64,000 nt of DNA from a virus (IMGVR_UViG_3300025810_000004:32001-96000); one strand, 5' to 3'; shown: positions 556 to 61,805, counted from the stretch's first letter. The notes: generated by a model not told the origin, from the letters alone. A program made the numbers and translations.

Positions 556-858
556 ATGACCTATGAAAATATCCGCAACAAGTTTCAGAATTCAGAAACC
601 GACGTCGTGATTGTCGCACCCGATGCCAAGGTGCAAGAAGTCGCACTTGGTCTTTCCACCCTGTTCGAACCGGGAAGCTATTCTGCCTCCCGCAGGGAGT
701 GGACGAACCACCGCAACGCCAAGGTGAAGGTGCGGGGTATCTGCAACCCCGAAGACCTCAGCCCGGATACAGAGGTCATCTTCTTCCCTGTGACCCGGCC
801 CTACACCGACACGGAGCGGAGGTTCATCAAGTCCTGGAGGATCACTCCCACTCGATAG
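556..858 (+). CDS. hypothetical protein
   Basis: ORF 520..858; likely ATG at 556 after GAGGA; convergent with guaA. Confidence 0.5.
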   Translation: MTYENIRNKFQNSETDVVIVAPDAKVQEVALGLSTLFEPGSYSASRREWTNHRNAKVKVRGICNPEDLSPDTEVIFFPVTRPYTDTERRFIKSWRITPTR

Positions 859-2356
859 TGCCGGGGGGCTTGGTGCTTATATCGTAGGTCACCCTGTTTA
901 TGCCCCGCACTTCGTTGATGATGCGGGTAGAAATCCGGGTGAGCACCGACCAAGGTATCTCCGCCACGTCAGCCGTCATGCCATCAGTTGAGTGGACCGC
1001 ACGTATGACGCACGTCTTCTCATACGTCCGCTGGTCCCCCATCACCCCCACGCTCTTCACTGGAAGCAAGACTGCGAGGCTCTGCCACAGACGTTCGTAC
1101 CAACCGGACTGTCTGATTTCGTAGTCCAATATAGCTTCGGCTTCCTGCAGAACGGCGACAGCCTCAGCCGTCACCTCACCGGGGATGCGGATAGACAGTC
1201 CGGGACCTGGGAAGGGATGCCTGTTCACACGCTTGTCGCTCAGGCCCAGTTCCTTGCCCAGCAGTCTGACCTCGTCCTTGAAAAGCTCCCTGAGGGGCTC
1301 TATGAGTTCGAATTCAAGGTCTTCCGGCAAACCCCCCACATTGTGGTGGGACTTGATGGTAGCGGAGGGACCACGGAAGGAAACCGACTCGATAACGTCC
1401 GGATAGAGAGTTCCCTGTGCAAGGAACTTCGCGCCCTGAACAGACCTGGCATAATCGCTGAAGACGTCCACGAACGTCTTCCCCACCGCTTTGCGCTTCT
1501 GCTCGGGGTCGGTGAGACCCGACAAAGCAGAATAGAACTTGTCCTTGGCGTCGACCACAGTGAGGTTGAGTTCAGAGAATTCTCGCTCGACCTCCTCCCT
1601 CTCGCCCTTCCTCAGGAGCCCGTTGTCGACAAACACACAGTGCAACCTGTCGCCTATGACCCCGTGGAGGAGAGAAGCGACAACAGAAGAGTCAACCCCG
1701 CCAGACAGACCGCATATGACCTTGTCTTCAGGGGAAACCTGAGACTCTATCTGGGCATGGGCTATGTCTATGTATGATCCCACGCTCCAGTCTTGTGCTA
1801 TGTCGCACTGGTCGACCCACTCTCTTATCAAGGTCGCACCATCTTGGGAGTGGGACACTTCCGGGTGAAATTGGAACCCGGTGAAACCAAGCTCTTCACT
1901 GCGTATCCCGGCGAACTGGCAGTCCACGGTGCTGTAGACGGTTTCCCAGTCTCCCATAGGGAGAGACATAACCTTGTCCCCGTGGGACATCCAGACTTTG
2001 GACCTGACACGGGGGTTCCCACCGGGTTCGCTGATGTAGGCGGGTCCATACTCTCTGGATTTGGTGGATACTACCTCACCACCCAGGTGGTGGACAACCA
2101 CTTGCATCCCATAACATATACCAAGGACCGGAACCCCCATTTCCAACCATTCGCGGTCAAATGGGGGAGCGCCCTCCTCGTACACGGAGGAGGGCCCACC
2201 GGATAACACCACCCCCCTGACGTTCCAGGGGTCGGTTATGCCGAAGGGGTGGTCGGTGCAGGGTCGGATAGAGCAGAAAACACCCAATTCCCGAATCCTA
2301 CGGGCTATGAGTTGGGTGTACTGACTGCCGAAATCTACTATTACGATCCGCTTCAT
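842..2356 (-). CDS. guaA: GMP synthase (glutamine-hydrolysing)
   Basis: DFGSQYTQLIARR, GICYGMQ nucleophile, QFHPE, SGGVDS PP-loop, IKSHHNV, C-terminal KPPGTIEWE; SD AGGAGG. Confidence 0.97.
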   Translation of the reverse strand: MKRIVIVDFGSQYTQLIARRIRELGVFCSIRPCTDHPFGITDPWNVRGVVLSGGPSSVYEEGAPPFDREWLEMGVPVLGICYGMQVVVHHLGGEVVSTKSREYGPAYISEPGGNPRVRSKVWMSHGDKVMSLPMGDWETVYSTVDCQFAGIRSEELGFTGFQFHPEVSHSQDGATLIREWVDQCDIAQDWSVGSYIDIAHAQIESQVSPEDKVICGLSGGVDSSVVASLLHGVIGDRLHCVFVDNGLLRKGEREEVEREFSELNLTVVDAKDKFYSALSGLTDPEQKRKAVGKTFVDVFSDYARSVQGAKFLAQGTLYPDVIESVSFRGPSATIKSHHNVGGLPEDLEFELIEPLRELFKDEVRLLGKELGLSDKRVNRHPFPGPGLSIRIPGEVTAEAVAVLQEAEAILDYEIRQSGWYERLWQSLAVLLPVKSVGVMGDQRTYEKTCVIRAVHSTDGMTADVAEIPWSVLTRISTRIINEVRGINRVTYDISTKPPGTIEWE

Positions 2357-2409
2357 GGCGTTGTCCTCCTGGTGTAGAGGACAGTACCCGCCGAGATACT
2401 TTTAGCTAA

Positions 2410-4344
2410 TTAGCTGTTATTCTTCAGAAGCCTAAGACGCTCTCGGTTGTCAAGCTCCATGAAGTGCTCAAGGGCGGGGTCGTCAGACTCGAACCCCGCA
2501 TCTTCAGCGGCCCTCCAGATGGCACCATCATCCTGGGCCAGGTACTTCAGACCCTTAATTCCGGGCTCGGGGCCGTCCCCGTCGTAGGAGTATCCGACAA
2601 TCTCGCCCGCCAGGATGTCCAGGTCTCTGCGGTCGAACGACAGGAAAATCCTGGAAGCGGACTTTCCTCGTGCGTGCTGAATGTTCTCTGCGCGTACAAC
2701 AGATTCCACCCCGCCGTTGCTCCACCGCACGGTCGGGTGACCCTTGAAGAAACCAGTCTCCGCAACGTCAACCACCTTGCCGTCAATAGGAGCACCAACC
2801 TGCATTCCCGTGTTCCGCAGGAACTTTCCAGTGTGTCGAACGATGTCCCCCACCTTGAAGTCTCCAGCCTTACCCCCAACCTTACCCAGTTGACTCACTA
2901 TGGACTTCTTCATGGCCTTTCTGATCGTATCCTGAATGCGGGTCAGGTCCTTGGTGGTAGGGTTGCCGCTTATTGCTCCCCCGATCATAGTTCCATACTT
3001 AAAGAGTACGGATTCAATGGCTCTGTCTATAGCCCTGTCTTCCCTCATATCGCTGCCGCTGCCGCGCTTCTTCCACCTCCGGGTGGACTGCTCCTCGCGG
3101 AAGTCCTGCAACACCTGAGTTCGGAGGCTCTTGACGCGTTCCTTGATGTCTTCCTCTCTGGTATGCTTGTAGAGAAGGTCTATCTTTGCCTTCTCCTCTT
3201 CGTCCTTCAGCTCTTGCTGGACACTTGCAAACACCTCGTCGAAAGACTGAATCAGAGCCTTCTTGGCCCCCTTCCAAGCCTTGGCCACGCGGGGAGCAGA
3301 GGGGACGTTGCCGCTTTCTCCCACGATGCCGTTCTCTTCCATATACTCGCGCACGTTTTTGACCCTGAGGCCAACGTCAGCACTGGACCCACCCCTGAAG
3401 ATGAAGGGGTCCCTTCCCTCTTCCTTCATCTTCATGGCAACCTCCACAACCTTCAGCTGGAAGGAATTGTTGCGGAGGTTCCAAAGCCAGTTGGGAACGG
3501 TCCGGTTGAACCACCCATCGAACTCAAGGAGATCTTCTGGTTCGAGGGGATCGGCGTCCTCAAAGATCTCGGCTATAACCTCAGGCCCAAGGAACTGAGC
3601 CTTGTAACCCTGGTCTATAGACTTCACCCACTTCCTGGCTATATTCTGGGCGGATTTACCGAGCTGTGAAACCAGCTTCTTGAGACCGGGCCGAGCCGGA
3701 GCGAGCTTCGTTATGATGCTCTCACCAACGGGGTAGAGAGGAGGACGGTCCTTGAACTTCTTCTGGGTGTTGTCCCAGATGTCTCCGGGAAGGGGAAGGC
3801 CACCCATGACCATGACGGCAGCTATGTCGTCAGGGGAAGCACCGCGTATGCCGGGAACGTGGTCGGCGTAGTGGGGCTTCCAGGAGTTGGCAAGCCCAGC
3901 AGACGCGCCGCCGTACAGGGCGTTGTACAATCCGGTTTCGTTCGGCATGAAGAAGGTGCCGATGAAGTCAAGGGCGTTGCCCTTCCGCATCTTGGACCAG
4001 AGTTCGGGGGCAGGATAACCCAACTCAGCCTCAGCGGCAGTTATGGCCTTCTTGTCCACCTTCTTGGGGTCGCCCCCCGCCAGTCGCATGACCACCTGGT
4101 TGAACTCCTTGGTCCTGTTTGCCTCGTCGGAGAGGGAGGCACCACTCAGGAACTGCCGCCTGAAGGACAGGGGGTTTTCGCCGAGTATGGCAGCAAGGTA
4201 ATCGCTTCTCATGAGGCGGTCCATGCTGGCAGCAGTTGCCTTCTTCAGGATAGAGGCCACCAACACTCTGGCGTTCTTCCTCAGGGAGACGTCGAGGAAT
4301 GGGGTGTTTGCGATTCTAACCAAAGGCGACAGGGTTGCGTACAT
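2410..4344 (-). CDS. modular hypothetical protein, possibly virion-associated; C-terminal SH3/KOW-like module
   Basis: 644 aa; N-terminus LVRIA..ILKKATA resembles the LIRLA leader; FKVGDIV..GKVVDV..TVRW module; CGGTCA-N6-TAT motif upstream. Confidence 0.55.
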   Translation of the reverse strand: MYATLSPLVRIANTPFLDVSLRKNARVLVASILKKATAASMDRLMRSDYLAAILGENPLSFRRQFLSGASLSDEANRTKEFNQVVMRLAGGDPKKVDKKAITAAEAELGYPAPELWSKMRKGNALDFIGTFFMPNETGLYNALYGGASAGLANSWKPHYADHVPGIRGASPDDIAAVMVMGGLPLPGDIWDNTQKKFKDRPPLYPVGESIITKLAPARPGLKKLVSQLGKSAQNIARKWVKSIDQGYKAQFLGPEVIAEIFEDADPLEPEDLLEFDGWFNRTVPNWLWNLRNNSFQLKVVEVAMKMKEEGRDPFIFRGGSSADVGLRVKNVREYMEENGIVGESGNVPSAPRVAKAWKGAKKALIQSFDEVFASVQQELKDEEEKAKIDLLYKHTREEDIKERVKSLRTQVLQDFREEQSTRRWKKRGSGSDMREDRAIDRAIESVLFKYGTMIGGAISGNPTTKDLTRIQDTIRKAMKKSIVSQLGKVGGKAGDFKVGDIVRHTGKFLRNTGMQVGAPIDGKVVDVAETGFFKGHPTVRWSNGGVESVVRAENIQHARGKSASRIFLSFDRRDLDILAGEIVGYSYDGDGPEPGIKGLKYLAQDDGAIWRAAEDAGFESDDPALEHFMELDNRERLRLLKNNS

Positions 4345-6199: not shown

Positions 6200-6349
6200 A
6201 TGGCCCGACGAGAAGAAATCCGACTCACGGTTGATCCTGATATGCTCGTCTGGCTGAGGGCTGAAGCCAAACGCCGTCGGGTCTCTATGTCCCACATCGT
6301 GCGGGACCTTATCCTTCAGGCCATGCCCGAAGAGGCCAAGACCCAGTGA
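6200..6349 (+). CDS. ribbon-helix-helix (CopG-like) protein, 49 aa, not in ORF track
   Basis: MARREEIRLTVDPDMLVWLRAEAKRRRVSMSHIVRDLILQAMPEEAKTQ; SD AGGAG; GTGA overlap with tnpB. Confidence 0.75.
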   Translation: MARREEIRLTVDPDMLVWLRAEAKRRRVSMSHIVRDLILQAMPEEAKTQ

Positions 6350-7638
6350 GGCTGGCCTACCGAGTGGAGATCAGGCCGACGCCTCGCCAGAGGCAGGCCC
6401 TCCTGCAACATGCAGGCAACGCTCGGTGGGCTTACAACTGGGGCCTCTCCCGCCACAAAGAAACCTACGACCAGTGGGTTGAAATCGGCAAGCCAAAGAA
6501 GTGGAAAGGCTGGCTCAACGCCGTCTCCCTTCACCGGGAGTTGAATCTTCTGAAGAAGGCTGCCCCAGAGGACGGCGGGGTCCCCTGGATGTACGAGGCC
6601 AGTAAAGCCGCTCCACAAGAGAGTCTGAGAGACCTTGACCGTGCGTTCAAGAACTTCCTCTCAGGGAGGGCCAAGTACCCCCGGTTCAAGTCCCGGAGCC
6701 GTGGGGTCGGCGGGTTCCGCCTGACCGGCACCATCAAGGTCGATCACCGGACGGTCCAACTCCCGAGGATCGGAAGGCTCCGGTTTCAGCCCGGCGAACA
6801 GGGCTACCTGCCCTGGGGTAAGCACACCCAGGTCTCCGTCTCTGAGAAGGCTGGCAGGTGGTTCGTCTCGATCGTTGGACCAGAGGTCTCGGAAGCAGAG
6901 CCGAACGGGAAAGATGCTGTAGGTCTGGATCTCGGCGTGACCCGGTTGGCTACGCTGTCGGACGGGACGGTCATCGAGAACCCTCGCGCTTTGAAGTCAG
7001 CCCAGCGGAAGATCAAGCGACTCCAGCAGGAGGTATCCAGAAAGAAGAAAGGCTCAGCGAACCGAGGCAAGGCCAGGGCGAAGCTCGCCCGTGCCCACGT
7101 CCGGGTCGCTAATGTAAGACGTGACACGCTTCACAAGGCCACGACCATGCTTGCCAAGAGCCACGGCAAGGTGATCATCGAGGACTTGAAGGTGCGGAAC
7201 ATGACTCGCTCGGGAGGCTCGCAGAAGCGGGGCCTCAACCGGGCCCTGCTCGATGCCGCCTTCGGGGAGTTCTGTCGCCTGTTGAAGTACAAGGGGAAGC
7301 TGTACGGCTGTGAAGTCGTGGCTGTCCCGCCGCAGTACACCTCGCAGCGATGTTCCGTTTGCGGTCACGTCGAGAAGGACAACCGGGTTTCTCAGTCGAG
7401 GTTCCTGTGTCTGTCCTGCGGCTTTGCGGTCAATGCTGATCTCAACGCCGCGATCAACATCTTGGAGGCCGCCAGTTCTACGGACTCCCTAAACGCCTGT
7501 GGAGAGGGCGTAAGACCTACTTCGACTTGTTCGGAGAGGCAGACCTCGTTGAAGCAGGAACCCGGCACCAACCTTCGGGTTGGGTCAGTCCGGGGGCCGT
7601 CCTCGCAAGAGGCGGCAGCCATGCCTGGGTTTACCTAA
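6346..7638 (+). CDS. tnpB: RNA-guided endonuclease TnpB
   Basis: N-terminal AYRVEIRPT..ARWAYNWGL; RuvC triad GLDLG / IEDL / NADLNAAINI intact; CSVC..CLSC zinc ribbon. Confidence 0.95.
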   Translation: MRLAYRVEIRPTPRQRQALLQHAGNARWAYNWGLSRHKETYDQWVEIGKPKKWKGWLNAVSLHRELNLLKKAAPEDGGVPWMYEASKAAPQESLRDLDRAFKNFLSGRAKYPRFKSRSRGVGGFRLTGTIKVDHRTVQLPRIGRLRFQPGEQGYLPWGKHTQVSVSEKAGRWFVSIVGPEVSEAEPNGKDAVGLDLGVTRLATLSDGTVIENPRALKSAQRKIKRLQQEVSRKKKGSANRGKARAKLARAHVRVANVRRDTLHKATTMLAKSHGKVIIEDLKVRNMTRSGGSQKRGLNRALLDAAFGEFCRLLKYKGKLYGCEVVAVPPQYTSQRCSVCGHVEKDNRVSQSRFLCLSCGFAVNADLNAAINILEAASSTDSLNACGEGVRPTSTCSERQTSLKQEPGTNLRVGSVRGPSSQEAAAMPGFT

Positions 7639-11334: not shown

Positions 11335-13332
11335 ATGAGGGGTGTAGCGGTGGCTGATTCTGCTAATGGTCTTTCTGTCTTTCCCAATGAGTTGTCTCAG
11401 TTCGTAATCACCCGGTCTTACTCCAGGTGGAACCCCGATTTGGGCCGGAGGGAGACTTATCCGGAGACGGTAGAAAGATACTGCAGTTTCATTTCCAAGC
11501 ACCGTGACATACCAGCCGAAATACTGGAAGAGATACGGTCTGGAATCCGGACCATGAACACACTCCCCTCCATGCGAGCGTTGTGGTCTGCGGGTACAGC
11601 GGCAGAGACCGACAACACCATGATCTACAACTGCTCTTTCCTCCCGCTCGACAATCTCAGAGCATTCTCCGAGATGCTCTACATCCTGATGATGGGGACT
11701 GGTGTGGGGTACTCCGTCGAAAGAACGTTCGTGGACAACCTTCCTAAGGTTTATCCCTCCAACGGACACACCCACCACATCACGGTGGAGGACAGCACGG
11801 CAGGATGGGCGGATTCCCTGTTTGAGGGATTGACCTACATGTGGAAGGGAAGCAAGGTCACATTCGACTATTCTCTCGTCCGTCCGGAAGGCTCAAGGTG
11901 CAAGACCAAGGGTGGCAGAGCTTCCGGACCCAAGCCGCTGAAGGACCTCCACGATTTCTGTCAGAACCTTCTGGACAACGCGAGGGGTCGCAAGCTCAGG
12001 TCCATAGAGGTCAGTGACATAGCTTGCATGATCGGGGAAATAGTCAAGGCAGGGGGAGTCCGGGGTGCTGCCCTTATTTGCTTCTCCGACCCTGACGACG
12101 AGGAAATGCGTCACGCCAAGGACTGGAGCCGGGGCGACTTTCCGAGTTACAGATACGTGGCGAACTTCAGCGGATTCTGGTCTGAGCGTCCAGACCGGAA
12201 GACCTTCGACAAGGAGTGGACTGCTCTCAGGAACTCCGGGTCTGGTGAGCGCGGCTTCTACATGTTCCCCCACCACAAGCGTTCTGAGCGCCGGGGTGAC
12301 TGCCGCTCCAACCCGTGTGGGGAAATCCTGCTCCGTTTCAAGAGGGCCGAGTGCCCCTGGACCGGAAGAGGCGGCGGGGGTCAGTTTTGCAACCTCTCTG
12401 CAGCTGTCATGCGTTCTTGGGACACCAAGGAGACTTTCGCCGCCAAGATCCGGGTCGCCACCTGGATCGGTGCCATACAGTCCAGCTTCACCGAGTTCCC
12501 GTATCTTCGCCCTGCCTGGAAGCAGCACTGTGAAGAGGACAGGCTTCTCGGTGTGGATATAACGGGCCACTGTGACAACCCCGCCCTTTCTGGTGACAAC
12601 GAGGCCATGGCCTACTTCAACACGGTCGCCAGGGATACTGCGTACGTCGCTGCGAAGCATCTGGACATAAACGTCCCAGCCATGATCACCTGTGGGAAGC
12701 CCAGCGGTAACTCCTCTCAGGCAGTGGACTGCGCAAGCGGTTTCCATACCCGTTGGAGCAAGTTCTACATCCGCAGAGTTCGCATCAACAACAGGGACCC
12801 CCTTTTCAGTCTTATCAAGGATGCCGGGGTCCCGGTCTTCAAGGACAACTCGTACAAGAACCTCCCCGACGAGGAGTGCCCTAGGTGGGTTGCGGAGTTC
12901 CCGGTCAAATCGCCTGAAGGCTGCATGACCAGAGACGACGAGACTGCCATCGAGCAGCTCAACCGCTACCTCAACATCATGGAGACTTGGCTTTCGGTCA
13001 AGGGACACAACCAGTCTGCCACCGTCTACGTTCGGGACCACGAGTGGGATGGAGTCGGTGACTGGCTTTACGAGAACTTCAACAAGGTCACCGGACTCTC
13101 CTTCCTCCCCTACGACGGCGGGAAGTACGAACTGGGACCCTACGAGACCATAACCGAAGAAGAGTACAACCGCCTCAGCGAGAGCTTCCCCCACATCGAC
13201 TATTCCCTCCTTCCCTCCTACGAGGTTGAGGACATGGGTACGGGTGCACAGGAGCTTGCTTGCATGGGCGGTTCTTGTGAATTGGGTGATTGGCTCGACG
13301 CCAAGAGCGAAGAAGTCTCCGCTTCTTTGTAG
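11335..13332 (+). CDS. nrdJ: class II (B12-dependent, RTPR-like) ribonucleotide reductase
   Basis: PSMRALW, YNCSF, GVGYS, NPCGEI thiyl motif, KPSGN, C-terminal ACMGGSC; no small-subunit gene nearby. Confidence 0.9.
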   Translation: MRGVAVADSANGLSVFPNELSQFVITRSYSRWNPDLGRRETYPETVERYCSFISKHRDIPAEILEEIRSGIRTMNTLPSMRALWSAGTAAETDNTMIYNCSFLPLDNLRAFSEMLYILMMGTGVGYSVERTFVDNLPKVYPSNGHTHHITVEDSTAGWADSLFEGLTYMWKGSKVTFDYSLVRPEGSRCKTKGGRASGPKPLKDLHDFCQNLLDNARGRKLRSIEVSDIACMIGEIVKAGGVRGAALICFSDPDDEEMRHAKDWSRGDFPSYRYVANFSGFWSERPDRKTFDKEWTALRNSGSGERGFYMFPHHKRSERRGDCRSNPCGEILLRFKRAECPWTGRGGGGQFCNLSAAVMRSWDTKETFAAKIRVATWIGAIQSSFTEFPYLRPAWKQHCEEDRLLGVDITGHCDNPALSGDNEAMAYFNTVARDTAYVAAKHLDINVPAMITCGKPSGNSSQAVDCASGFHTRWSKFYIRRVRINNRDPLFSLIKDAGVPVFKDNSYKNLPDEECPRWVAEFPVKSPEGCMTRDDETAIEQLNRYLNIMETWLSVKGHNQSATVYVRDHEWDGVGDWLYENFNKVTGLSFLPYDGGKYELGPYETITEEEYNRLSESFPHIDYSLLPSYEVEDMGTGAQELACMGGSCELGDWLDAKSEEVSASL

Positions 13333-20961: not shown

Positions 20962-22146
20962 ATGGCAACACCAAGCAAGAACAAGGGAACCAGATTCCGC
21001 GATATGCAGGACGACCCCATCACCAAGATGAGGGAACACCTCCGGAAGAAGCGGGGCAAGGAATACGAGAACATCCGGGTCGCACTCAACGACGACGTGC
21101 TGAAGCAGAGTCTCCCCCACATCAGCTCCGGTTCGATCACCATCGACTTTCTGATTGGTGGGGAACCCAACATGTTTGGGGTCGCACCCTGTCCGGGGTT
21201 CCCCCGTGGTCGTGTCGCTCAGGTCTGGGGTCACGAGTCCGCAGGAAAGACCACTCTTTGCTTGGAAGCCGTTGCTGAGGTTTGCCGCCAGGGAGGGACG
21301 GCAGTCTACATCGATTGGGAGAACGACATTGTCCCCGATTATGCCGCAGCCCTGGGTGTCCCCATCAACGACGAGTCCAAATTCGAGCTTCTTCAGCCGG
21401 AAACGTTGGAAGACGGAATCAAGTATGCCATGGCATTCGCAGCCGCTGGTGTGGACTTGGTCGTATTTGACTCCGTTGGTTCTGCTGTTCCGAGGCGCAT
21501 CGCTGAGCGTGACGCCATGGAAGTGGCAGAGCAGGGGAAGATCGCGGAACTCCAGTCAATCTGGTCTCAGGAACTCCCCAACCTCAAGAATCTGATTGCC
21601 CAGACCGGAACCGCAATCGTTGGAATCTCCCAGGTCCGAGCTACCATGGCTCAGATGGGTAAGAAGACCAAGCCCCAGGGTGGTAACGCTTGGAAGTTCT
21701 ATTCTTCTGTTCGTCTGGAATTGACTCGCATCAAGAACGAGAAGTCCAAGGAGCACAACTTCCTCACCCACCGCGCCGACGAGCGGGTCATCGGTGGCAT
21801 CATCCGGGCTACTGCCATCAAGAACAAACTCTCCAAGTCGCAGGGTCGACAGGAACTGTTCTACATTCGTTGGGGGGAGGGTATCGACAACATCCGCACC
21901 CTGATTGAAATCGCCAAGGCACACGGAATCATCAAGGCTTCTGGTTCTTGGCTGAATTGGGAAGACGGACCTGACGGGCCCATTAAGGTTCTCGGGGTGG
22001 AAAAGTTCCGCAAGCACTTTGTGGATAACGAGGCCCATCGCGATGCCCTCCACCAGAGGGTAACTCCGCTGCTTGGGGCTGGTAAATCCCTGGAGGGCTT
22101 CGAAGAGGACTCCGAAGAGGAAGAATTCGGCGGGCTGGACATCTGA
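20962..22146 (+). CDS. recA: RecA recombinase
   Basis: GHESAGKTT, VFDSV, ISQVR, GGNAWKFYSSVR, KNK. Confidence 0.95.
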   Translation: MATPSKNKGTRFRDMQDDPITKMREHLRKKRGKEYENIRVALNDDVLKQSLPHISSGSITIDFLIGGEPNMFGVAPCPGFPRGRVAQVWGHESAGKTTLCLEAVAEVCRQGGTAVYIDWENDIVPDYAAALGVPINDESKFELLQPETLEDGIKYAMAFAAAGVDLVVFDSVGSAVPRRIAERDAMEVAEQGKIAELQSIWSQELPNLKNLIAQTGTAIVGISQVRATMAQMGKKTKPQGGNAWKFYSSVRLELTRIKNEKSKEHNFLTHRADERVIGGIIRATAIKNKLSKSQGRQELFYIRWGEGIDNIRTLIEIAKAHGIIKASGSWLNWEDGPDGPIKVLGVEKFRKHFVDNEAHRDALHQRVTPLLGAGKSLEGFEEDSEEEEFGGLDI

Positions 22147-22154
22147 GGTGAGTG

Positions 22155-23375
22155 ATGGCCGTTGAAGTCAGAATCAAAAATTTCCAGTCCATTGAAGACG
22201 CGACCTTGGTTGTGGACGGACTAACGGTCATAACTGGAATCAACAATAGTGGCAAGACAGCCGCTATCAGAGCCATCAAGGGGGTTTTCACCAACCCCCC
22301 TGCTGGTGCTCTCGTGCGTCACGGTTGTGCTTACCTCAGCGTAACCCTCGTATTTGATGATGGCACAACCGTGACTTGGGAGAAGGGCTGGGAGAAACCC
22401 AACCAGAAGGGCAAGACCATCAACAGGTATCTGTTGAATGGGAAAGAACTGGCTGGGGTCGGGAGTGGCGTCCCACCGGAGGTGGAAGACCTGGGGGTCA
22501 AAGAGGTCAGGGCGGCTTCCGACAGGATCTGGCCACAGATCGCGGATCAATTCGATGGCTCTTTGTTCTTGGTCAACAGGCCCGGTTCGGCTACCGCAGA
22601 GGCTCTGTCTGACGTGGAGCGAGTGGGTTCGCTGACGGCGGCGCTGAAAGCCTCGGAGAAGGACAAAAGGTCCGTGGACTCCGAGTTGAAGATTCGCAGG
22701 AAGGACGTCCAGGAACAGACCGAAGAGTTGTCGAAGTATGATGGTCTGGGAGAAGTGGGGGAATTGGTAGAGGACCTGTCCCTCATGGACACCACCATAA
22801 AGTCCAAGGAATCCGAGATCTCCAAGCTGGAGGGGCTGAAGTCCTCCTACGACGATTCCAGGACTTCTCACGATTTGTACTCTGATTTTGATACAGAGAT
22901 CGTTCCTGACCCAACCAGGGTTCAGAGACTCGGTAAGGCTGTGAGGAAGGTCACCGGATTGTCTTCCAGACTGGAATCCTCCACCAAGGACCTGGATCGA
23001 TTCGAAGGGTTCGTGTCCGTTTCCCTTCCAGATCCTTCGGGTCTGCAGACCCTATCGGACAGTATAGCCTCCGTACAAGGGTTCGCTTCGAAGCTGGGGG
23101 ACACAGAAGCCCTGCTTTCGAGTCTTGTGGGTTGTGAAGTGGAAATCCCGGATTCTGGGGAGGTCGAACGACTCAGCGAATCTTTGACCATGGTGTCGGG
23201 GTTCGTGGAATCCCTGGGTGCTCTCCAGAGGGAGATCCAGACACTGGGAGAATCCCTCACTCTTTGCCTTTCTGAATTTGAAGACTCGGAATCCGAAGTG
23301 TCCTCCATCTTGGGGGAAATGGGTATGTGCCCTGTTTGCAACACGGTACACTCCAACACAGGAGCTTCAGTATGA
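22155..23375 (+). CDS. SbcC/Rad50-like ATPase, N-terminal half
   Basis: IKNFQSI, Walker A GINNSGKT, coiled coil, ends just after CPVC hook; no Walker B. Confidence 0.8.
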   Translation: MAVEVRIKNFQSIEDATLVVDGLTVITGINNSGKTAAIRAIKGVFTNPPAGALVRHGCAYLSVTLVFDDGTTVTWEKGWEKPNQKGKTINRYLLNGKELAGVGSGVPPEVEDLGVKEVRAASDRIWPQIADQFDGSLFLVNRPGSATAEALSDVERVGSLTAALKASEKDKRSVDSELKIRRKDVQEQTEELSKYDGLGEVGELVEDLSLMDTTIKSKESEISKLEGLKSSYDDSRTSHDLYSDFDTEIVPDPTRVQRLGKAVRKVTGLSSRLESSTKDLDRFEGFVSVSLPDPSGLQTLSDSIASVQGFASKLGDTEALLSSLVGCEVEIPDSGEVERLSESLTMVSGFVESLGALQREIQTLGESLTLCLSEFEDSESEVSSILGEMGMCPVCNTVHSNTGASV

Positions 23376-23578
23376 AAGTTAGCGTAAAGAAACTCTCGGT
23401 GGAAATACCCATCAAGAACAAGGGCATCGAGATCGAAGTTCGGGAAACAGACGGTTCCCACCTTGGGGATCTGGTCATCACCAAGTCCGGTTTGACCTGG
23501 TGCAAAGGCCGCACCCGCCGAGAAAATGGCAAGTTCGTTTCTTGGGGGAAGTTCATCGACCTCCTGTCGGGTGGGTGA
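23372..23578 (+). CDS. small hypothetical protein
   Basis: MKVSVKKLSVE..GDLVITKSGLTWCKG; ATGA overlap. Confidence 0.65.
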   Translation: MKVSVKKLSVEIPIKNKGIEIEVRETDGSHLGDLVITKSGLTWCKGRTRRENGKFVSWGKFIDLLSGG

Positions 23579-23581
23579 CCC

Positions 23582-24559
23582 GTGAGCATCAACCTCGTTT
23601 GGCGCACCGACGTTCACCTGTCCGACCGAGCACCCTCGTCCCGCACGGACGATTGGACCGATGCCGTGTTCGACAAACTCGGGCAAGTTCGTGACCTCGC
23701 CCGTGAGGTCAATGCCGCCGCTATCATCGACGGCGGTGACTTCTTCCACATCAAGTCCCCCGGTCGGAACAGCCATGCGCTCGTCAACCGGACGGCAGAG
23801 CACCACAGCACCTATCCGTGCCCGGTCTACTGCACACCGGGGAACCACGACTCCGTATACGGCGATTATTCTTTCCTGCCGCAGCAGCCTTTGGGCGTCC
23901 TGTACTCGACGGGCGTGTTCAAGCGGCTGTATGACGAACATGAGGCTGTGTTCCGTCGGTCTGGTGGGGTCACCGTCCGCGTGGTCGGTGTCCCGTACCA
24001 CGGCACGTCCTACGATATGGAGCGGTTCACCTCCATCGAGAAGGGCGACGAGGACATTCTGATCTGCGTGGCCCACGTGCTCGCCTCCCACAAGGGCGGC
24101 ACCATGTTTGAGGGCGAGGACATCATCAAATACGCCGACCTCTTGGACACCGCTCCCGATGTGTACCTGTTCGGCCACTGGCACAAGAACCAAGGCGTCG
24201 AGACTCTGGGAGGCAAGCAGTTCGTGAACATCGGCTCACTGACCCGTGGGTCGCTCTCGCAGGACAACCTCGATAGGATTCCTTCTGCGGCTGTGCTCCG
24301 CTGCACCGAGAAGGGGGTCGAGGTCGAGGTTGCACCACTCAACGTCCGTCCCGCAGAGGAAGTGTTTGACGTGGAGGGTCGGGAGCGACAGGTCAGGAGA
24401 CAGATGGAAATGGACTCGTTTGTGGACGCCATACGCGAGTCCCTGCAACCCCCCGAAGACGGCGAAACTCTCGCTGACGTGGTGGCTGGTATGGGCGACG
24501 TCCCCAACGAAGTGAAGGAGCGAGCCCTTTCCTATCTGGAGCACGTGGGTACAGTGTAG
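23582..24559 (+). CDS. sbcD: SbcD/Mre11-like metallophosphoesterase nuclease
   Basis: DVH, GGDFFH, GNHD, GHWH motifs. Confidence 0.88.
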   Translation: MSINLVWRTDVHLSDRAPSSRTDDWTDAVFDKLGQVRDLAREVNAAAIIDGGDFFHIKSPGRNSHALVNRTAEHHSTYPCPVYCTPGNHDSVYGDYSFLPQQPLGVLYSTGVFKRLYDEHEAVFRRSGGVTVRVVGVPYHGTSYDMERFTSIEKGDEDILICVAHVLASHKGGTMFEGEDIIKYADLLDTAPDVYLFGHWHKNQGVETLGGKQFVNIGSLTRGSLSQDNLDRIPSAAVLRCTEKGVEVEVAPLNVRPAEEVFDVEGRERQVRRQMEMDSFVDAIRESLQPPEDGETLADVVAGMGDVPNEVKERALSYLEHVGTV

Positions 24560-24575
24560 ACACTGGAGGTACCCC

Positions 24576-25529
24576 GTGAACGAGTCATCCACCTTATACT
24601 GGTCCCACTTCAAGATGTACGAGGATTGTCCTCAGCTACTCTTGTGGACAAAGGGCTGGGACGGGATAGACTGTGGGGGAGGCGTGGGAAGACCCAAGCC
24701 AAACCCGTCAGAGGATTCCAAAGAGCATGCTGTGATGGGAATAGCCATCCAGTACGCTGTGGAGAGGATGTACAACGGGGAGCTTTACAAGAACCCAAAG
24801 AACCTCCTCGAAACCATGCAGAAAATAGCCAGGGACGAGTTCGAAAGGCAGGAATCCAAGCCTCGCAACAACATCAACTGGCAAAACTCCAGGATAACCC
24901 GCGCTGAAGCTCTTCAAGTGGTGGAAGACGGGGTTCACGGCTATCTGAAGACCATGAAGGCCCATAGGTTTCTGGGTCCCTATGCCAAGGCGGAAGTCAA
25001 CATCTACGGCTGGATCAACAAGTGGACCTCCATCGGGGGGAGGGCCGACACCATAATCCGGCGTGACGACACTGGCATCACGATCATCGACGGCAAGAAC
25101 ACCAAATGGAAGATGAAGTACACCGACCCGGACCAGCTCCGGTGGTACGCCCTCTTGTTCAAGCTGTCGTACAACAAGATGCCAAACCGTCTTGCTTTCG
25201 TCTGGTATAGGTTCCCCCACGGAATGGTGACCCATGCCGAGGACGGGACCGAGGTGGTCGAGACTGGAGTGGAATGGGTCGACTTCGACGAAGAGGACCT
25301 GCAGGGTCTGGCGCAGCGCGTTCTGAAAGTGAAGAAGGCCATGAGGCAGGGGAAATTCGCCCCCAACCCCGTTCCTTCCAGGTGCAGACTGTGCGACTAC
25401 GAATCTGTCTGCCCTGAACGTCAGTCCCAGAGAGCCGCCAACGCCGCCAAGCGCAAGAAGAAGGCCCCGGTTGAGCTGGAAATAGACCCGACCAGAGAAG
25501 AAGGCGGGGTCAAGTTCTTCACCCTTTAG
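24576..25529 (+). CDS. PD-(D/E)xK nuclease, Cas4/AddB-like, probable Fe-S cluster
   Basis: N-terminal CP, GRAD..IIDGK, QLRWY, CRLCDYESVC. Confidence 0.8.
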   Translation: MNESSTLYWSHFKMYEDCPQLLLWTKGWDGIDCGGGVGRPKPNPSEDSKEHAVMGIAIQYAVERMYNGELYKNPKNLLETMQKIARDEFERQESKPRNNINWQNSRITRAEALQVVEDGVHGYLKTMKAHRFLGPYAKAEVNIYGWINKWTSIGGRADTIIRRDDTGITIIDGKNTKWKMKYTDPDQLRWYALLFKLSYNKMPNRLAFVWYRFPHGMVTHAEDGTEVVETGVEWVDFDEEDLQGLAQRVLKVKKAMRQGKFAPNPVPSRCRLCDYESVCPERQSQRAANAAKRKKKAPVELEIDPTREEGGVKFFTL

Positions 25530-25854: not shown

Positions 25855-27012
25855 ATGGAACTCAAGGTCGCTCCTGATTATCTTCTCTCCGCTCTCCGAA
25901 TCGCCAACCTTTGTGTGGGCAAGGGGGGTATTTCTGCTCACTTCCTGTTCCGGGTCAGGGACGGGTCCGCAGAGATCCTCAGCAAGTCCACCAGGACGTT
26001 CTCCGTGTGCCCCGTGACGTGCACCACGGAGGTCGAGGAAGACGAGGACCCGCGATTCACCGTGGAGGCTTGGCGGCTTATCAAGTGGGTCAACACCATC
26101 AACAGCGGGAACAACGCCATCACCCTTTCCCACAAAGACGGTGAGGTCACCGCCAAGTGCGGCAGGAGCAAGGTCAAGTTCCGCAGCCTCGACCCAAACG
26201 GTTTCAGGGGGTGGGACTCCCTCTACCAGCAGGCAGAAGATTGCTGCGAGGTCGACCCCCCGGTTTTCTCCAGAGCCATCGCCGCAGGTCGGATCATGGT
26301 CTCACAGGAAGACACGCTGAAGCCCGAAAACTGCCAGTTGGTGGCTTGGGGCGAATCCCTGGCTGCTACGGACCAGAAGGGCGTGGTGAACGTCGGTTTG
26401 CCGTACGAGGGTCTGAACCTCCGGGTTCCCTTCAAGGACATTTCCACCATCCAGAAGTTCATCGAGGACAAGGACACGGTGGAAAACCCGATCTACATCA
26501 AGGAAGCCAAGAGGGTCAAGGAGGACGGGGGCTCGGAATTCGACTTCTTCGTCAGGCCCGATGGGACCTACATCGGGGTTGCGCGACTCGCCCTTCTTCC
26601 CGCGAAGGTCCTGACTCCTGGCAAGGACCAGAAGTGCCATGCCTACATCAACCTCCACAGTGAGGAATTCCAGACCGGGTTGGCTGTTCTGACTGCTTCG
26701 GCTCCCAAGGGGCACCACACCGCCCACTTCTCCATCAGCGGGGAATCGGTCACCCTTTCCATGCCTTCTGCGGCTGGGGGCAAGGACTCATATCCCATGA
26801 TCCACACCCAGGCGGAAGAGGGTGGTGAGGACCTTGAATTCTTCATCGACTACCACTACTTCATCGACCTGTTCGGGCTCTTCAATGTGTCTGAGCTGAG
26901 GGTGGGGGTGTACAAGGCCGGGGACAAGGGGTATGTCTCTGTGTACCACGATGACTCCGACGACGATGCCAACTCCTATTCCTTCGCTATCGGGTGCCTC
27001 TTTGAGACTTGA
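25855..27012 (+). CDS. DNA sliding clamp (Pol III beta-like)
   Basis: 385 aa; LAATDQ motif, beta-clamp-like spacing; clamp-loader genes in same window. Confidence 0.6.
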   Translation: MELKVAPDYLLSALRIANLCVGKGGISAHFLFRVRDGSAEILSKSTRTFSVCPVTCTTEVEEDEDPRFTVEAWRLIKWVNTINSGNNAITLSHKDGEVTAKCGRSKVKFRSLDPNGFRGWDSLYQQAEDCCEVDPPVFSRAIAAGRIMVSQEDTLKPENCQLVAWGESLAATDQKGVVNVGLPYEGLNLRVPFKDISTIQKFIEDKDTVENPIYIKEAKRVKEDGGSEFDFFVRPDGTYIGVARLALLPAKVLTPGKDQKCHAYINLHSEEFQTGLAVLTASAPKGHHTAHFSISGESVTLSMPSAAGGKDSYPMIHTQAEEGGEDLEFFIDYHYFIDLFGLFNVSELRVGVYKAGDKGYVSVYHDDSDDDANSYSFAIGCLFET

Positions 27013-27631
27013 GGAAATCAAGTCGAGGTATCTGCAGCTGGACACCCTCCGGAGTTCCTGTGCCAGCACCTTGGCTTCCACTGAGGCCAAGGTCATAAAG
27101 CTGGAAGGGGAGTCGGAGATTCTGGCGCGGGTTTCCGACCTGTTCCGGGTGCTGATAGACAAAGAGGTCATAAACAACGTCAGGGCGGTTGAAAGCCTCC
27201 TGACGGAGGGCCTGCAGGCTGTGTTTGACGACCTGGACCTGTCTGTGTCTTCCGAGATCTCTGTCAAACGGGGGAAGGTTTCAGTTGAACTCTCCACCGT
27301 TCAGAAGCTCCCAGATGGCACCGTGACCGAGGGGTCTTGCATCGACTCGTGTGGGGGCTCAATCGCGACTGTAGAATCCGTTCTGCTTCGGATAGTCGTG
27401 GTGAACCGCAGGAACATGCGCCCACTTCTCCTTCTGGACGAGTCGCTTGCTGCTGTGTCTGAACACTATGTGCCTCGTGTGGGTACTTTTCTATCACTGC
27501 TATGCGACCGATTGGGGATGGACATACTTAGTGTGACCCACAACCCCGCGTTGGTTGAGGCGGCAGACACGGCCTACAGGATCAAGAATTCCGGGGGTCG
27601 AGCTACCTTCAGGAAGTTGGGCAACGGATGA
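27002..27631 (+). CDS. SbcC/Rad50-like ATPase, C-terminal half
   Basis: signature SCGG, Walker B LLLLDE, H-loop VTHN; start (TTG 27002) uncertain. Confidence 0.8.
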   Translation: MRLEEIKSRYLQLDTLRSSCASTLASTEAKVIKLEGESEILARVSDLFRVLIDKEVINNVRAVESLLTEGLQAVFDDLDLSVSSEISVKRGKVSVELSTVQKLPDGTVTEGSCIDSCGGSIATVESVLLRIVVVNRRNMRPLLLLDESLAAVSEHYVPRVGTFLSLLCDRLGMDILSVTHNPALVEAADTAYRIKNSGGRATFRKLGNG

Positions 27632-28128
27632 AGACAGAAGGCGAAATCAGACGCAAACTTCAGCAGGCGCAGTATCGCCATGTGAAGAAGATTCTGCGTA
27701 CCAAATTTCGCCACCTCGGTGACGGCGAGTGGCCCTCCAACGAAGTGGAGAGCATCAAGTCGGACTACAAGGAGTTCTTTTCTGTCTCCCCCACCCACGT
27801 CATAGCTCAACAGTTCCCAGACGTGGCCGCTCTGATGTGGGTATTGGAGGCACAGCCCGACCAGCCCCTCATGCCCAACGGCTCCCTCGTGGGTCGTATG
27901 GGTGGGGTCATGCTTTGGGCAGACTCCGAAGAGGACGCGGACTTGGCCCGGTCCATGATCGACAAGATCGTGGAAGCCGCCACACGCGAGCCTGACCCCC
28001 CGGAACCCAAGACCACCGAGACCAACTGGGGTCGGGCACATACTGAGAGCGGCACCAGCGTGGTTCCTGTGAGTGAGACGGGTCTGGAGCCCGTGAAGAA
28101 GTCGTGGTGGCATAGGTTGTTCGGATGA
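27628..28128 (+). CDS. hypothetical protein
   Basis: ATGA-coupled; ends KKSWWHRLFG. Confidence 0.6.
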   Translation: MKTEGEIRRKLQQAQYRHVKKILRTKFRHLGDGEWPSNEVESIKSDYKEFFSVSPTHVIAQQFPDVAALMWVLEAQPDQPLMPNGSLVGRMGGVMLWADSEEDADLARSMIDKIVEAATREPDPPEPKTTETNWGRAHTESGTSVVPVSETGLEPVKKSWWHRLFG

Positions 28129-31369: not shown

Positions 31370-31411
31370 AAGGGGTACGGTATCTCCAACACCCACTAGG
31401 AGGTACCCACA

Positions 31412-39510: not shown

Positions 39511-40704
39511 CTACGCCTTGGGCGGTCTCCACCCCACAGGGTCAGCCACCCACGGATGATCTACACCCTCGCCACGGCACAGGGGTGAGTCCTCTGGCGT
39601 CCAGTGACACCGTGCCTTCCCGCGTTTGGAGTGCTTGAGCCTATACTCTGCACGGAGGGCTTCGGAGCGGCTGTAGTACGGGCCGTAGCAGGCTCGGGCG
39701 ACCCACGGACGGTGCTTGGAAGTCCACTTTCCTCCTCCCTTCTTGCCCATCTTGCCGTTGGCGTAGCGCCCGTTGTGCTCACGGAGCCGTCGAGCCGGAT
39801 CTGTGGTCATCCCAACGTAAAAGTAGCCGGGGAGGACTCGACCCGTCTTGGGACTCACCCGCTTCTGCTCACTTTGCAAGACGTACACCCAGTAGAGGCG
39901 GGACCGCTTCTCCTTGACTTTCACATTTAGGCAGTTGGGGTCGTCCATGTGTTCCTCGATGATCTGGGACTCGACCTCAAGAGCCTCGTCGTCGGTGTCG
40001 CACTCCACCAGTACCCGCCATGTGGCGGTGCTCCAGTCCTGCTCGTTGAGGGCGGCTGTGTGACACCCCCTCGCAGATTTGCTCTTGTGGACATTGAACC
40101 GAAGGTCAGGACGGGTTGACTTGCCGTAGTAGTAGCAGCCATTGGCGAATGTAATGCAGTACACCCGTGGGCGCTTCGTGGCTTCCCTCTTGGCTCTCAG
40201 GGAATCCTTGTTCGCTTCCCGGTACTCGCGTTGGTACGCCGCCCTCATCTCCCGTCTGGCTCTCTCTGTGGCAACGATCCGCTCCTTGTTCGCTTCCCGG
40301 TACTCCCGCGCATGAGCCGCCTTCATCTCCCGTCTGGCTTTGCGGTACTCGCGTTGGTACGCCACATTCTTCGCCCGATTCGCCTCTCGGTAGGCTCTCT
40401 CTGTGGCAACGATCCGCTCCTTGTTCGCTTCCCGGTAGGCTGCAACCCGAACACTAATCTTCTCTTTGTTCGCTTCCCAGTACGCCTTCCCGCGAGCAGC
40501 GATTCGCTCCTTATTCGCTTCCCTGTAGGCTTTCAGACAAGCCTTGCAGTAGACCTGCAAGCCATCCTTCCGATTGCGGTCACGGTTGTACTCGGAGAGA
40601 GGCTTGTCCTCGCCGCACTTGCTACAGGTCTTCGTCGTCGGGGCGGCGGGATCCCGTTCAATCCCGAACAGGTCAAACACATCAAGGGTATCGTAGGGCA
40701 GCAT
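39511..40704 (-). CDS. endonuclease with Zn finger, helical repeats and two GIY-YIG domains
   Basis: CSKC..CKAC; YREANKERI repeats; VYCI..YYYGKS..RFNVH and VYVL..FYVGMTTDPARRLREHN. Confidence 0.85.
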   Translation of the reverse strand: MLPYDTLDVFDLFGIERDPAAPTTKTCSKCGEDKPLSEYNRDRNRKDGLQVYCKACLKAYREANKERIAARGKAYWEANKEKISVRVAAYREANKERIVATERAYREANRAKNVAYQREYRKARREMKAAHAREYREANKERIVATERARREMRAAYQREYREANKDSLRAKREATKRPRVYCITFANGCYYYGKSTRPDLRFNVHKSKSARGCHTAALNEQDWSTATWRVLVECDTDDEALEVESQIIEEHMDDPNCLNVKVKEKRSRLYWVYVLQSEQKRVSPKTGRVLPGYFYVGMTTDPARRLREHNGRYANGKMGKKGGGKWTSKHRPWVARACYGPYYSRSEALRAEYRLKHSKRGKARCHWTPEDSPLCRGEGVDHPWVADPVGWRPPKA

Positions 40705-60150: not shown

Positions 60151-60372
60151 ATGAGCAAGCGCTTGATGAACCACCTGTCGCGGAAGATGGGTCGCAACAC
60201 CACGGCCACCCCCGCTGATAGGGAGACACGCACGGTCACCCTCACACGGTCGGATTTGGGCTTAATCGTGAAGTGGTTTGAGGGCACCCTGAGCGACCAC
60301 GAACGTCACATGGACCCCAACGAAGCCGCTCACATGCGAGAGGTCGTCCACAAGGTCAAGGCAGCAGGGTGA
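60151..60372 (+). CDS. hypothetical protein
   Basis: 73 aa, SD AAGGA. Confidence 0.5.
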   Translation: MSKRLMNHLSRKMGRNTTATPADRETRTVTLTRSDLGLIVKWFEGTLSDHERHMDPNEAAHMREVVHKVKAAG

Positions 60373-60476
60373 TCCACTTCCTTCTCGGCATGGCTACGGG
60401 TGTGTTCGTGTGCACCGCCGTATTCGGGTACGTCGTCTATCACCTCTACAAGTTATTCAAATACGGAGCCTGACCA

Positions 60477-61805
60477 ATGAGCACCGAAGCATACGACTAC
60501 CTGTACGCCACCTACATCTGGATCGACGGCGGCTCCCCTACCCAGACCCTCCGGTCGAAGACCCGCGTGATCATCGACGTGGTGCAAGGCCGGATGCTGG
60601 GGTCCGCGACCGCGAACGCGAACTGGGTTCTGGACCTGGGCGGCGAGTGGGACTGGTCCTTCGACGGGAGCAGCACCATGCAGGCGGACGGGGACTCCTC
60701 CGACTGCGTGCTCAAGCCCATCCGGTTCTTCCGTGACCCCCTTCGCCCCCGGACCCCGTGTCCCGAGACGGGAGAGCCCCGCCATCACCTGCTGGTGCTC
60801 TGCGAGGTCTTCGGTGCCGATGGCGAGCCACACCCGTCCAACTACCGGGCTCGCCTCCGTGACGTGGAGCACGCCATCGAGGAGGAGGCCGAAGACCCGA
60901 CCGGGTGTTGGTTCGGCTACGAGCAGGAGTACACGCTGTTCAAGGGCTCCCGTCCGCTGGGCTTCGGTGAGGATCGGAGGTTCCCCGCAGCGCAGGGTCC
61001 CTACTACTGCGGCGTGGGGGCCGACGAGGTGAAGGGGCGTGATCTGGTCGAGGAGCACATGGAGATGTGCGCCCGTGCGGGCATCCACCTGACCGGAATC
61101 AACGCCGAGGTCATGCCCGGCCAGTGGGAGTTCCAAGTCGGTGGTCCTGGTGCTTATGGGACGCTGGCGGGGGATCATCTGTGGATGGCCCGCTGGCTCC
61201 TGTACCGCTTGGGCGAGAAGTACGGCATCCACGCCACGCTCGATCCCAAGCCCGTCCCCGGTGACTGGAACGGAGCCGGGATGCACACCAACTTCTCGAC
61301 CCCCGCGATGCGCGAGAATCCCGTCTCTGATGACGGCAGCGAATCCGACAGCAGCAAGGGCATCCACGCCATCCACGCGTGGTGCCGAGAAGCCCGGTTC
61401 CGAGTCAGTGACCACCTGTCCGAGTACGGGGACGGCATCGAGATGCGCCTCACCGGGAAGCATGAGACGTGCTCCTACCGTGAGTTCAAGTGGGGGGTCA
61501 GCGACCGCACCGCTTCGATTCGCATTCCCATCGCCACCGCGAAGGCGGGCAAGGGGTACCTGGAGGACCGCAGGCCGAACGCGAACGCCTGCCCCTACCG
61601 GGTGGCCGTCGCCATGCTCAAGACCGCCTACGGGCTCTGGGGGCTCTCCCACGAGCGTCCTGAACCTCTGGAGGACAACCCGTTCGGAGACACCTACGAG
61701 GTGGTCTACACCGAGTACGGCGGAGGGTCGATCGGAAACGTGAGCGACCAGTTGTGGCTGTTCAACCTCAACGACTACACGATCACCACGGAAGGTGACA
61801 AGTGA
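60477..61805 (+). CDS. glnII: glutamine synthetase type II
   Basis: YIWIDG..LRSKT, WSFDGSSTMQA, EQEY, QGPYYCGVG, NAEVMPGQWEFQVG, GDWNGAGMHTNFS, RLTGKHET, YLEDRRP. Confidence 0.93.
   Translation: MSTEAYDYLYATYIWIDGGSPTQTLRSKTRVIIDVVQGRMLGSATANANWVLDLGGEWDWSFDGSSTMQADGDSSDCVLKPIRFFRDPLRPRTPCPETGEPRHHLLVLCEVFGADGEPHPSNYRARLRDVEHAIEEEAEDPTGCWFGYEQEYTLFKGSRPLGFGEDRRFPAAQGPYYCGVGADEVKGRDLVEEHMEMCARAGIHLTGINAEVMPGQWEFQVGGPGAYGTLAGDHLWMARWLLYRLGEKYGIHATLDPKPVPGDWNGAGMHTNFSTPAMRENPVSDDGSESDSSKGIHAIHAWCREARFRVSDHLSEYGDGIEMRLTGKHETCSYREFKWGVSDRTASIRIPIATAKAGKGYLEDRRPNANACPYRVAVAMLKTAYGLWGLSHERPEPLEDNPFGDTYEVVYTEYGGGSIGNVSDQLWLFNLNDYTITTEGDK

Follow-up and report, generated by a model that had tools for sequence, protein, structure and literature searches.

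The stretch of viral DNA considered here, IMGVR_UViG_3300025810_000004:32001-96000, comprises 64,000 nucleotides (the whole of which is termed the window in what follows) and encodes, besides a class II ribonucleotide reductase (RNR) and a type II glutamine synthetase (GlnII), a guanosine monophosphate (GMP) synthase (GuaA), an inosine monophosphate (IMP) dehydrogenase (IMPDH, GuaB) devoid of its CBS domain, and a homologue of the synthase PurZ that carries serine in place of an aspartate of PurA (Ser-type, as opposed to Asp-type). Based on the observed gene identities, catalytic motifs and gene order, and on the observed comparative linkage of guaB/guaA with PurZ, we propose, at a probability of roughly 0.7, that guaB and guaA travel with Ser-type PurZ and feed its substrate supply, thereby constituting a private, deregulated route from IMP to GMP.

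Biosynthesis of DNA containing 2-aminoadenine (Z) is usually described as the joint action of PurZ and pool-editing hydrolases, with the supply of deoxyguanosine monophosphate (dGMP) left to the host. A Ser-type synthase paired with a DutZ-type diphosphatase is known to start the synthesis of the triphosphate of Z (dZTP) from dGMP. In the proposed route, the CBS-less IMPDH would draw IMP into xanthosine monophosphate (XMP), which GuaA would turn into GMP, while host kinases and the phage reductase, which resembles ribonucleoside-triphosphate reductase (RTPR), would lead from GMP to GTP and dGTP. The DutZ-like protein encoded beside purZ, a fusion with a DUF1599-like domain, would return dGTP to dGMP and destroy dATP. 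Subsequently, PurZ would convert dGMP to a succino intermediate, from which host PurB and kinases would yield dZMP and dZTP, and a polymerase would introduce Z into the DNA. If adenine were fully replaced by Z, the guanine branch would have to supply 50% of the nucleotides versus 28.5%, a 1.75-fold rise at a G+C content of 57%, and for a genome of several hundred kb this demand may exceed the output of the feedback-controlled host IMPDH.

A sequence-only reading of the window had envisaged a longer guanine-nucleotide chain of GlnII, GuaB, GuaA and RNR converging on PurZ, together with a shared upstream element; its guaB and guaA part is retained here, in contrast to the ties of glnII and RNR to PurZ and to the GGTANNNT regulon, which are not supported, for the reasons set out below.

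Identity of the purine genes

The window corresponds to bases 32001-96000 of one linear IMG/VR virus contig of 158,946 bp with a G+C content of 57.0%; a codon-usage gene call gave 178 genes. Its completeness of 36% (CheckV) equates to about one third of a much larger phage genome, and baseplate and sheath-initiator genes mark the virus as a contractile-tail phage, i.e. an uncultured myovirus. DNA-level comparison with cultured phages gave nothing useful. The guaA, RNR, purZ, dut, guaB and glnII genes named in the sequence-only reading were all recovered as apparently intact open frames with strong family matches, as follows:

842-2356, minus strand: guaA, glutamine-hydrolyzing GMP synthase, 504 amino acids, full length (NF000848, GATase and GMP_synt_C domains)
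11335-13332, plus strand: class II RTPR-like ribonucleotide reductase, monomeric, B12-type (phrog_367, PDB 1L1L)
28876-29955, plus strand: homologue of purZ/purZ0-type succino-aminodeoxyadenylate synthase, 359 amino acids (PF00709, phrog_1211, Ser18)
29973-30701, plus strand: DUF1599-like N-terminal domain (residues 1-110) fused to a DutZ-like dUTPase domain (111-242) (Dut identity, PF07659 homologues)
30770-31369, plus strand: 199-amino-acid gene between dut and guaB, previously called an inserted cassette (no Pfam match)
31412-32464, plus strand: guaB, IMPDH core without CBS/Bateman subdomain, 350 amino acids (PF00478, 5UPY/4MY1)
60477-61805, plus strand: GlnII-type glutamine synthetase with insertions, 442 amino acids (4BAX alignment)

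The purZ, dut, 199-amino-acid and guaB genes follow each other in this order with gaps of 17, 68 and 42 nt. As far as can be told, the 199-amino-acid gene has no apparent place in the pathway; at its position, a 168-kb relative (an ENA contig) holds two different small genes.

The PurZ homologue belongs to the adenylosuccinate synthetase family (PF00709, E value 4e-46; match to phrog_1211) and features GSEGKG where PurA has GDEGKG, Ser18 replacing Asp13 of PurA. This serine is invariant in 31 homologues, and the further PurZ motifs PIRVAG and ERTTVTKKVRR are present as well. The best match in the PDB is the phage PurA-like enzyme 7VF6 (E value 2e-46), ahead of archaeal PurA and of the PurZ proteins of phiVC8 and S-2L, while the best matches among cultured phages are PurZ0-type actinophages at about 35% identity; overall, identity to characterized PurZ/PurZ0 enzymes amounts to 31-36%. 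The phylogeny rests on a quick tree, which puts the protein on a long branch within a large clade of metagenomic Ser-type proteins that is separate from Asp-type PurA, without grouping it firmly with the PurZ0 of phage Ghobes. The earlier contention that the enzyme is a Ser-type synthetase and not an ordinary PurA is thus upheld by GSEGKG and the invariance of its serine; its sequence supports a PurZ/PurZ0-like synthase, for which the use of dGMP and aspartate is predicted.

GuaA is identified as a GMP synthase by 699.7 bits on the NF000848 equivalog model (cut-off 400), by Cys81 and His164/Glu166 of the glutamine amidotransferase (GATase) triad and by the SGGVDS loop of the ATP-PPase, all of these residues being invariant in the alignment. 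The IMPDH matches PF00478 in a single stretch with 461 bits and, at 350 residues, lacks the CBS/Bateman regulatory subdomain. Residues 9-347 align end to end with the crystal constructs 5UPY and 4MY1, in which the CBS deletion is engineered whereas here it is natural; the junction, VKSKGLL, is 3 residues long and falls where these constructs have a short artificial linker. The short length had also suggested a GMP reductase (GMPR), a candidate that was rejected: the enzyme is an IMPDH because both the Cys loop GIGPGSICTT and the water-activating Arg-Tyr dyad (SSDRYF) are kept, and it scores 417 bits on TIGR01302 versus 226 bits on GMPR models. Hence, the designation guaB stands with respect to IMPDH identity and fails with respect to an ordinary GuaB, since the regulatory domain is absent. 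Loss of the Bateman domain would release IMPDH from its well-established allosteric control by nucleotides, and the phage enzyme is accordingly predicted from its domain structure to be insensitive to feedback. GuaA and IMPDH share 50-62% identity with cellular enzymes. A phage-specific loss of the CBS domain was considered and discarded because CBS-less IMPDHs exist in cells, including some streamlined bacteria. Actinobacteria-like cellular contigs (L094:2671-6471, L095 and L096) carry a natural CBS-less IMPDH of 372 residues, downstream of which lie another gene of the IMPDH family and guaA.

The gene that starts 17 nt downstream of purZ encodes a fusion protein of 242 residues. Its Dut domain finds its best phage matches, at 42-49% identity, in the Dut proteins of PurZ0 actinophages, which together with its position beside purZ marks it as DutZ-like. 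DutZ hydrolyzes dATP and dGTP to the monophosphates, as demonstrated for the Ghobes and Wayne enzymes, and dutZ is present in all 98 PurZ0 genomes surveyed (PMC12884076). By analogy, the fusion is a candidate dATP/dGTP diphosphatase making dGMP for PurZ. Residues 1-110 can be aligned with a protein family in which the full-length homologues P0266 and P0176 match PF07659 (DUF1599), and they form three long helices in an AlphaFold2 (AF2) model of moderate confidence (mean predicted local distance difference test score, pLDDT, of 69). Profile comparison of the DUF1599-Dut family with MazZ of S-2L and with the MazG-like protein of the large contig G077 (see below) gave no signal (probability 0.2) in favor of a MazG-type fold of the N-terminal domain. 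DUF1599, which Pfam terms nucleotide modification associated domain 1, occupies 29973-30302 of the fusion gene. In two unrelated contigs it forms a separate gene just after purZ-dut (L011:11298-11753; L012:11508-12077), and no paper linking DUF1599 to Z phages or Z-DNA was found.

Linkage of guaB and guaA with Ser-type PurZ

In IMG/VR scans, single-protein queries retrieved only near-identical relatives, so that alignment-based queries were needed. Full-length GuaA proved very rare in viral contigs and was mostly situated at provirus edges. Likewise, a tblastn search of NCBI phages with GuaA had no jumbo or lytic phage genome among its matches; these comprised unannotated multi-contig records named after hosts, predicted prophage regions and metagenome fragments, and are read as host DNA or contamination. 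Large contigs with an internal GuaA were G056 (371 kb, with terminal repeats), G073 (315 kb), G077 (308 kb) and G051, a 184-kb fragment that has GuaA and IMPDH in identical form with G077. The IMPDHs of all four are CBS-less and possess the Cys loop and the Arg-Tyr dyad. Moreover, G056, G073 and G077 each encode a Ser-type PurZ (GSSGKG or GSCGKG), which in the quick tree groups with PurZ of phiVC8 and S-2L, away from that of the window; the search for a PurA-family gene in the G051 fragment, which is 43% complete, was negative.

The arrangement of these genes varies among lineages. On one strand of G077, genes for an HD protein (YfbR-like, 70 bits) and a MazG-like protein are followed by guaB and guaA, and its purZ adjoins a dNMP-kinase-like gene and thyX; PurB homologues occur in G077 and G073. 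The next-nearest PurZ with a long contig, 48% identical to that of the window, is found in L011, where purZ-dut-DUF1599-guaA-guaB are contiguous and the IMPDH (371 amino acids) is again CBS-less. L011 has just those five genes in common with the genome of the window and is otherwise unrelated; one of its proteins matches, over the full length, a family confined to phages. Clustering of guaA/guaB with Z-pathway genes is therefore corroborated by two other lineages, L011 and G077. The genome of the window and G056 have seven genes in common, namely those for GuaA, RNR, RecA, PurZ, Dut, IMPDH and a GIY-YIG endonuclease. Among closer relatives, the synteny purZ-dut-x-guaB is kept in two, G001 and the 168-kb ENA contig, the latter in the order purZ-dut-x-x-guaB.

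The phage's own clade was sampled with a conserved 568-amino-acid marker, which detected 275 relatives; 34 of these were examined, on contigs of 75-619 kb, with the marker 61-85% identical and seven of the contigs at least 90% complete. GuaA, Ser-type PurZ and an IMPDH with the flap motif (the Arg-Tyr dyad) were each absent from all 34, so that none of these relatives carries guaAB independently of a Ser-type synthetase. Such independent carriage is what the sequence-only reading had named as contrary to its proposal, and the outcome thus favors that proposal. Within the clade, the three genes occur together only in the sub-lineage of the window (the window, G001 and the 168-kb ENA contig). 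On the other hand, a PurA-family gene occurs in six of the 34, and a gene of the IMPDH/GMPR family in precisely these six (6/6 vs 0/28). In these six, PurA is Asp-type (GDEGKG) and its GMPR-like partner is 32-38% identical to the IMPDH of the window; a scan of the six partners for the Arg-Tyr flap motif found none. The carriers are G148 (L400/L410, 57421-59458, with the genes adjacent), G128, G129, G130, G136 and G137. A large group of marine phages of an estimated 180 kb or so (L248-L255) exhibits the same pairing of Asp-type PurA with a GMPR-like protein, without GuaA. This mirror pair suggests conversion of guanine to adenine nucleotides, and, if the proposed linkage holds, its presence in sister phages turns the direction of phage purine rewiring into a testable trait. 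A wider generalization, to which we assign somewhat less than even odds, is that huge phages steer host purine flow by alternative gene sets, i.e. IMPDH-GuaA-PurZ with DutZ or DatZ/MazZ as against GMPR with Asp-type PurA, with guaB and guaA as repeatedly recruited fourth and fifth components of the Z pathway for very large genomes.

Counter-evidence, rival explanations and known systems

Several observations weigh against the proposed linkage or limit its reach. IMPDH was present in one of 50 IMG/VR contigs with PurZ relatives, the close relative of the window, and was missing from all 24 PurZ contigs with a completeness of 90% or more, most of which measure 30-60 kb. PurZ can thus do without guaB, which is an add-on of large phages; the notion of guaAB as a general trait of Z phages did not survive this count. 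G075, a complete genome of 104 kb, has GuaA without IMPDH or PurZ. Because G073 and G077 have 36-38 genes in common with the phage of the window and are thus its distant backbone relatives, the independent events number about three and not five, and the GuaB tree leaves it undecided whether the phage copies were gained independently. CBS-less IMPDHs are, moreover, found in cellular genomes too. The PurZ homologue scores 213 bits on NF038379, the PurZ model of NCBIfam, below its cut-off of 300, and guaA lies 27 kb away from purZ on the opposite strand. PurB, guanylate kinase, DatZ/HD, DUF550 MazZ and PolA-type DpoZ were not recognizable in the contig, a weak negative given that about two thirds of the genome are missing. 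Outside the window, at 26194-28029 of the genome (L259:6194-8029), a fragment of an N6_N4-type DNA methylase with a Hint/LAGLIDADG intein is encoded, which would be odd in a Z-substituted genome if adenine is its target. Finally, every enzyme activity, the loss of regulation and the occurrence of Z in this phage's DNA are what we infer from the sequences.

The rival that survives best, although unlikely, is generic nucleotide boosting, whereby GuaA, IMPDH, RNR and glutamine synthetase would be ordinary auxiliary genes of huge phages, enlarging purine and dNTP pools for a big burst of DNA and RNA, and the presence of PurZ a coincidence in large gene repertoires. RNR and GlnII indeed conform to it. 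The reductase matches phrog_367 over nearly the whole profile (448.7 bits) and, as its sole PDB sequence match, the monomeric triphosphate reductase 1L1L; with 222 bits on TIGR02505 (RTPR) it stays below the equivalog cut-off of 340. It is a common phage gene that supplies dNTPs in general and is not guanine-specific, and this wide occurrence speaks against its earlier assignment to a guanine-specific chain. GlnII matches the GlnII structure of S. coelicolor, 4BAX (E value 5e-104), with which the metal and substrate motifs EQEYT, NAEVMPGQWEFQ, HTNFS, SDR.ASIRIP and EDRRP.AN are aligned. Three insertions and about 60 additional residues at its C-terminus keep its score of 409 bits on NF041605 below the equivalog cut-off of 500. 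Among the large contigs with GuaA, five were examined, PurZ being present in three, and a glutamine synthetase was detected in none of them. In the NCBI phage set, GlnII homologues occur in only four huge-phage records, none with GuaA, two without any PurA homologue and one with a canonical Asp-type PurA. As glnII is absent from the other GuaA-bearing large contigs and present in huge phages without PurZ or GuaA, co-occurrence does not support its link to the pathway; GlnII may help GuaA with glutamine and is not demonstrably part of the module. Generic boosting further accords with GuaA standing alone in G075, with small Z phages that manage without guaB and with the scattering of the genes over 60 kb. 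What it fails to account for is that the 34 backbone relatives, of which many reach 200-600 kb, all lack GuaA and a true IMPDH, that Ser-type PurZ accompanies GuaA and IMPDH in every near-complete phage found with both, that two lineages have guaA/guaB within the Z cluster, and that the relatives with Asp-type PurA carry the opposite, GMPR-like enzyme.

Less probable still is that guanine supply serves ends other than Z, such as countering defenses that deplete dGTP or GTP, escaping stringent-response control of host IMPDH or fueling GTP-hungry functions, with PurZ as a separate anti-restriction trait. A Bateman-less IMPDH would be free of host nucleotide control whatever the use of its product, and the HD and MazG genes beside guaBA in G077 can be read as general pool editing; such an explanation nevertheless leaves open why guaBA was encountered only with Ser-type PurZ, and why it is located right after purZ-dut-DUF1599 in L011. 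That the Ser-type synthase of large phages makes no Z at all and performs another ligation on a guanine nucleotide to give a different product is very improbable, for the score below the curated PurZ cut-off, the 31-36% identity to characterized enzymes and the lack of DpoZ or DatZ in the contig are set against an invariant signature serine and other invariant PurZ motifs, an adjoining Dut closest to DutZ of PurZ0 phages, and a purZ-dut pairing that fits the rule reported in PMC12884076.

Under the proposed private route to GMP, the closest known counterpart is the PurZ0-DutZ(-DmtZ) system of Arthrobacter phage Wayne and Gordonia phage Ghobes (PMC12884076; 7VF6), which equally has a Ser-type PurA homologue beside Dut, the latter 40-49% identical to the Dut domain of the window. 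Those phages, however, are siphoviruses with genomes of about 40-45 kb that encode DpoZ and, in many cases, a Dut to which an NDT-like DmtZ is fused, whereas a huge myovirus with a DUF1599-like fusion is at hand here, in which IMPDH and GuaA are added upstream and no DpoZ was seen in the fragment. The datZ-mazZ-purZ cluster of S-2L and phiVC8 (PMC8342488, PMC8065100) follows the same logic of a hydrolase from dGTP to dGMP, removal of dATP and PurZ. It differs in that no HD or DUF550/MazG gene is recognizable in the contig of the window, while the classical cluster is without enzymes from IMP to GMP. PurZ of G056 and G077 belongs to the S-2L/phiVC8 branch, and guaB-guaA of G077 comes immediately after HD and MazG genes. 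The bacterial guaBA operon has both enzymes in common with the phage, every catalytic motif being kept; in the phage, the IMPDH is Bateman-less and the genes lie 27 kb apart on opposite strands. GMP reductases of Bacillus phage G, Xanthomonas phage XacN1 and Caulobacter phage Cr30 have the IMPDH/GMPR fold in common with the IMPDH of the window, to which phage GMPR-like proteins are 30-38% (jumbo phages and backbone relatives) or 42-46% (marine group) identical. Those aligned or scanned lack the Arg-Tyr flap, and any PurA partner is Asp-type, implying the opposite purine flow.

In full-text searches of the literature, no paper was found that brings PurZ together with huge or jumbo phages, nor one that treats GMP synthase and IMP dehydrogenase of phages in the context of 2-aminoadenine. 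As judged from the sequences, very large phages most likely add a deregulated branch from IMP to GMP at the upstream end of the Z-DNA pathway, a link not encountered in papers. If true, this would reveal where the Z pathway becomes limiting and would place fully Z-substituted genomes in jumbo myoviruses, a virus type without reported Z-DNA in the papers searched. In addition, Ser-type PurZ, CBS-less IMPDH and GuaA would constitute a genomic marker set for Z phages in metagenomes and offer parts for engineering efficient Z-DNA-making strains.

Upstream motif and neighboring genes

A short motif, GGTANNNT, is located 32-41 nt upstream of guaA, purZ and guaB, as the sequence-only reading had pointed out:

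28835-28842, plus strand: GGTATACT upstream motif, 41 nt before purZ
31374-31381, plus strand: matching copy of GGTATACT before guaB
2381-2388, minus strand: matching copy of GGTATACT before guaA

The total number of GGTANNNT in the window, 66 versus 66.7 expected, equals chance. At positions -50 to -22 relative to gene starts, it precedes 13 of 178 genes as opposed to 4.1 +/- 2.0 in shuffles, an approximately threefold enrichment. These genes include a nuclease and small genes of no assigned function, and no copy precedes glnII. Hence, the motif before guaA, purZ and guaB is confirmed, but its interpretation as co-regulation of guanine genes is not, since it stands before 13 or more genes of diverse kinds and is missing at glnII; rather than marking a guanine regulon, GGTANNNT probably acts as a promoter-like element for one class of genes. 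Terminator and sigma-70 promoter signals in the purZ-guaB cluster did not exceed chance.

With regard to the surroundings of purZ in the other large phages, PurZ of G073 (L153, contig position about 286.3-288.4 kb) contains an intein-like insert near the P-loop with a LAGLIDADG-type motif. In G056, purZ adjoins a gene for a 555-amino-acid protein with Mom-family and REase_MTES_1575 domains (L281:12218-13885). Mom enzymes modify adenine at N6, which is curious beside a pathway that replaces adenine.

Within the window, a gene of 644 codons at 2410-4344 (minus strand) lies 53 nt upstream of guaA on the same strand and has no Pfam or PHROG match. A complete TnpB/IS605 OrfB-type gene with helix-turn-helix (HTH), OrfB and Cas12f-like TNB domains is situated at 6346-7638, and a GIY-YIG homing-endonuclease-like gene with an N-terminal zinc-ribbon-like match, homologues of which occur in G073 and G056, at 39511-40704 (minus strand). 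Just upstream of the purZ cluster, a recombination block at 20962-25529 encodes a RecA-like protein, an SbcC-like ATPase, an SbcD-like phosphoesterase and a PD-(D/E)XK nuclease, and this block is conserved in the 168-kb relative as well.

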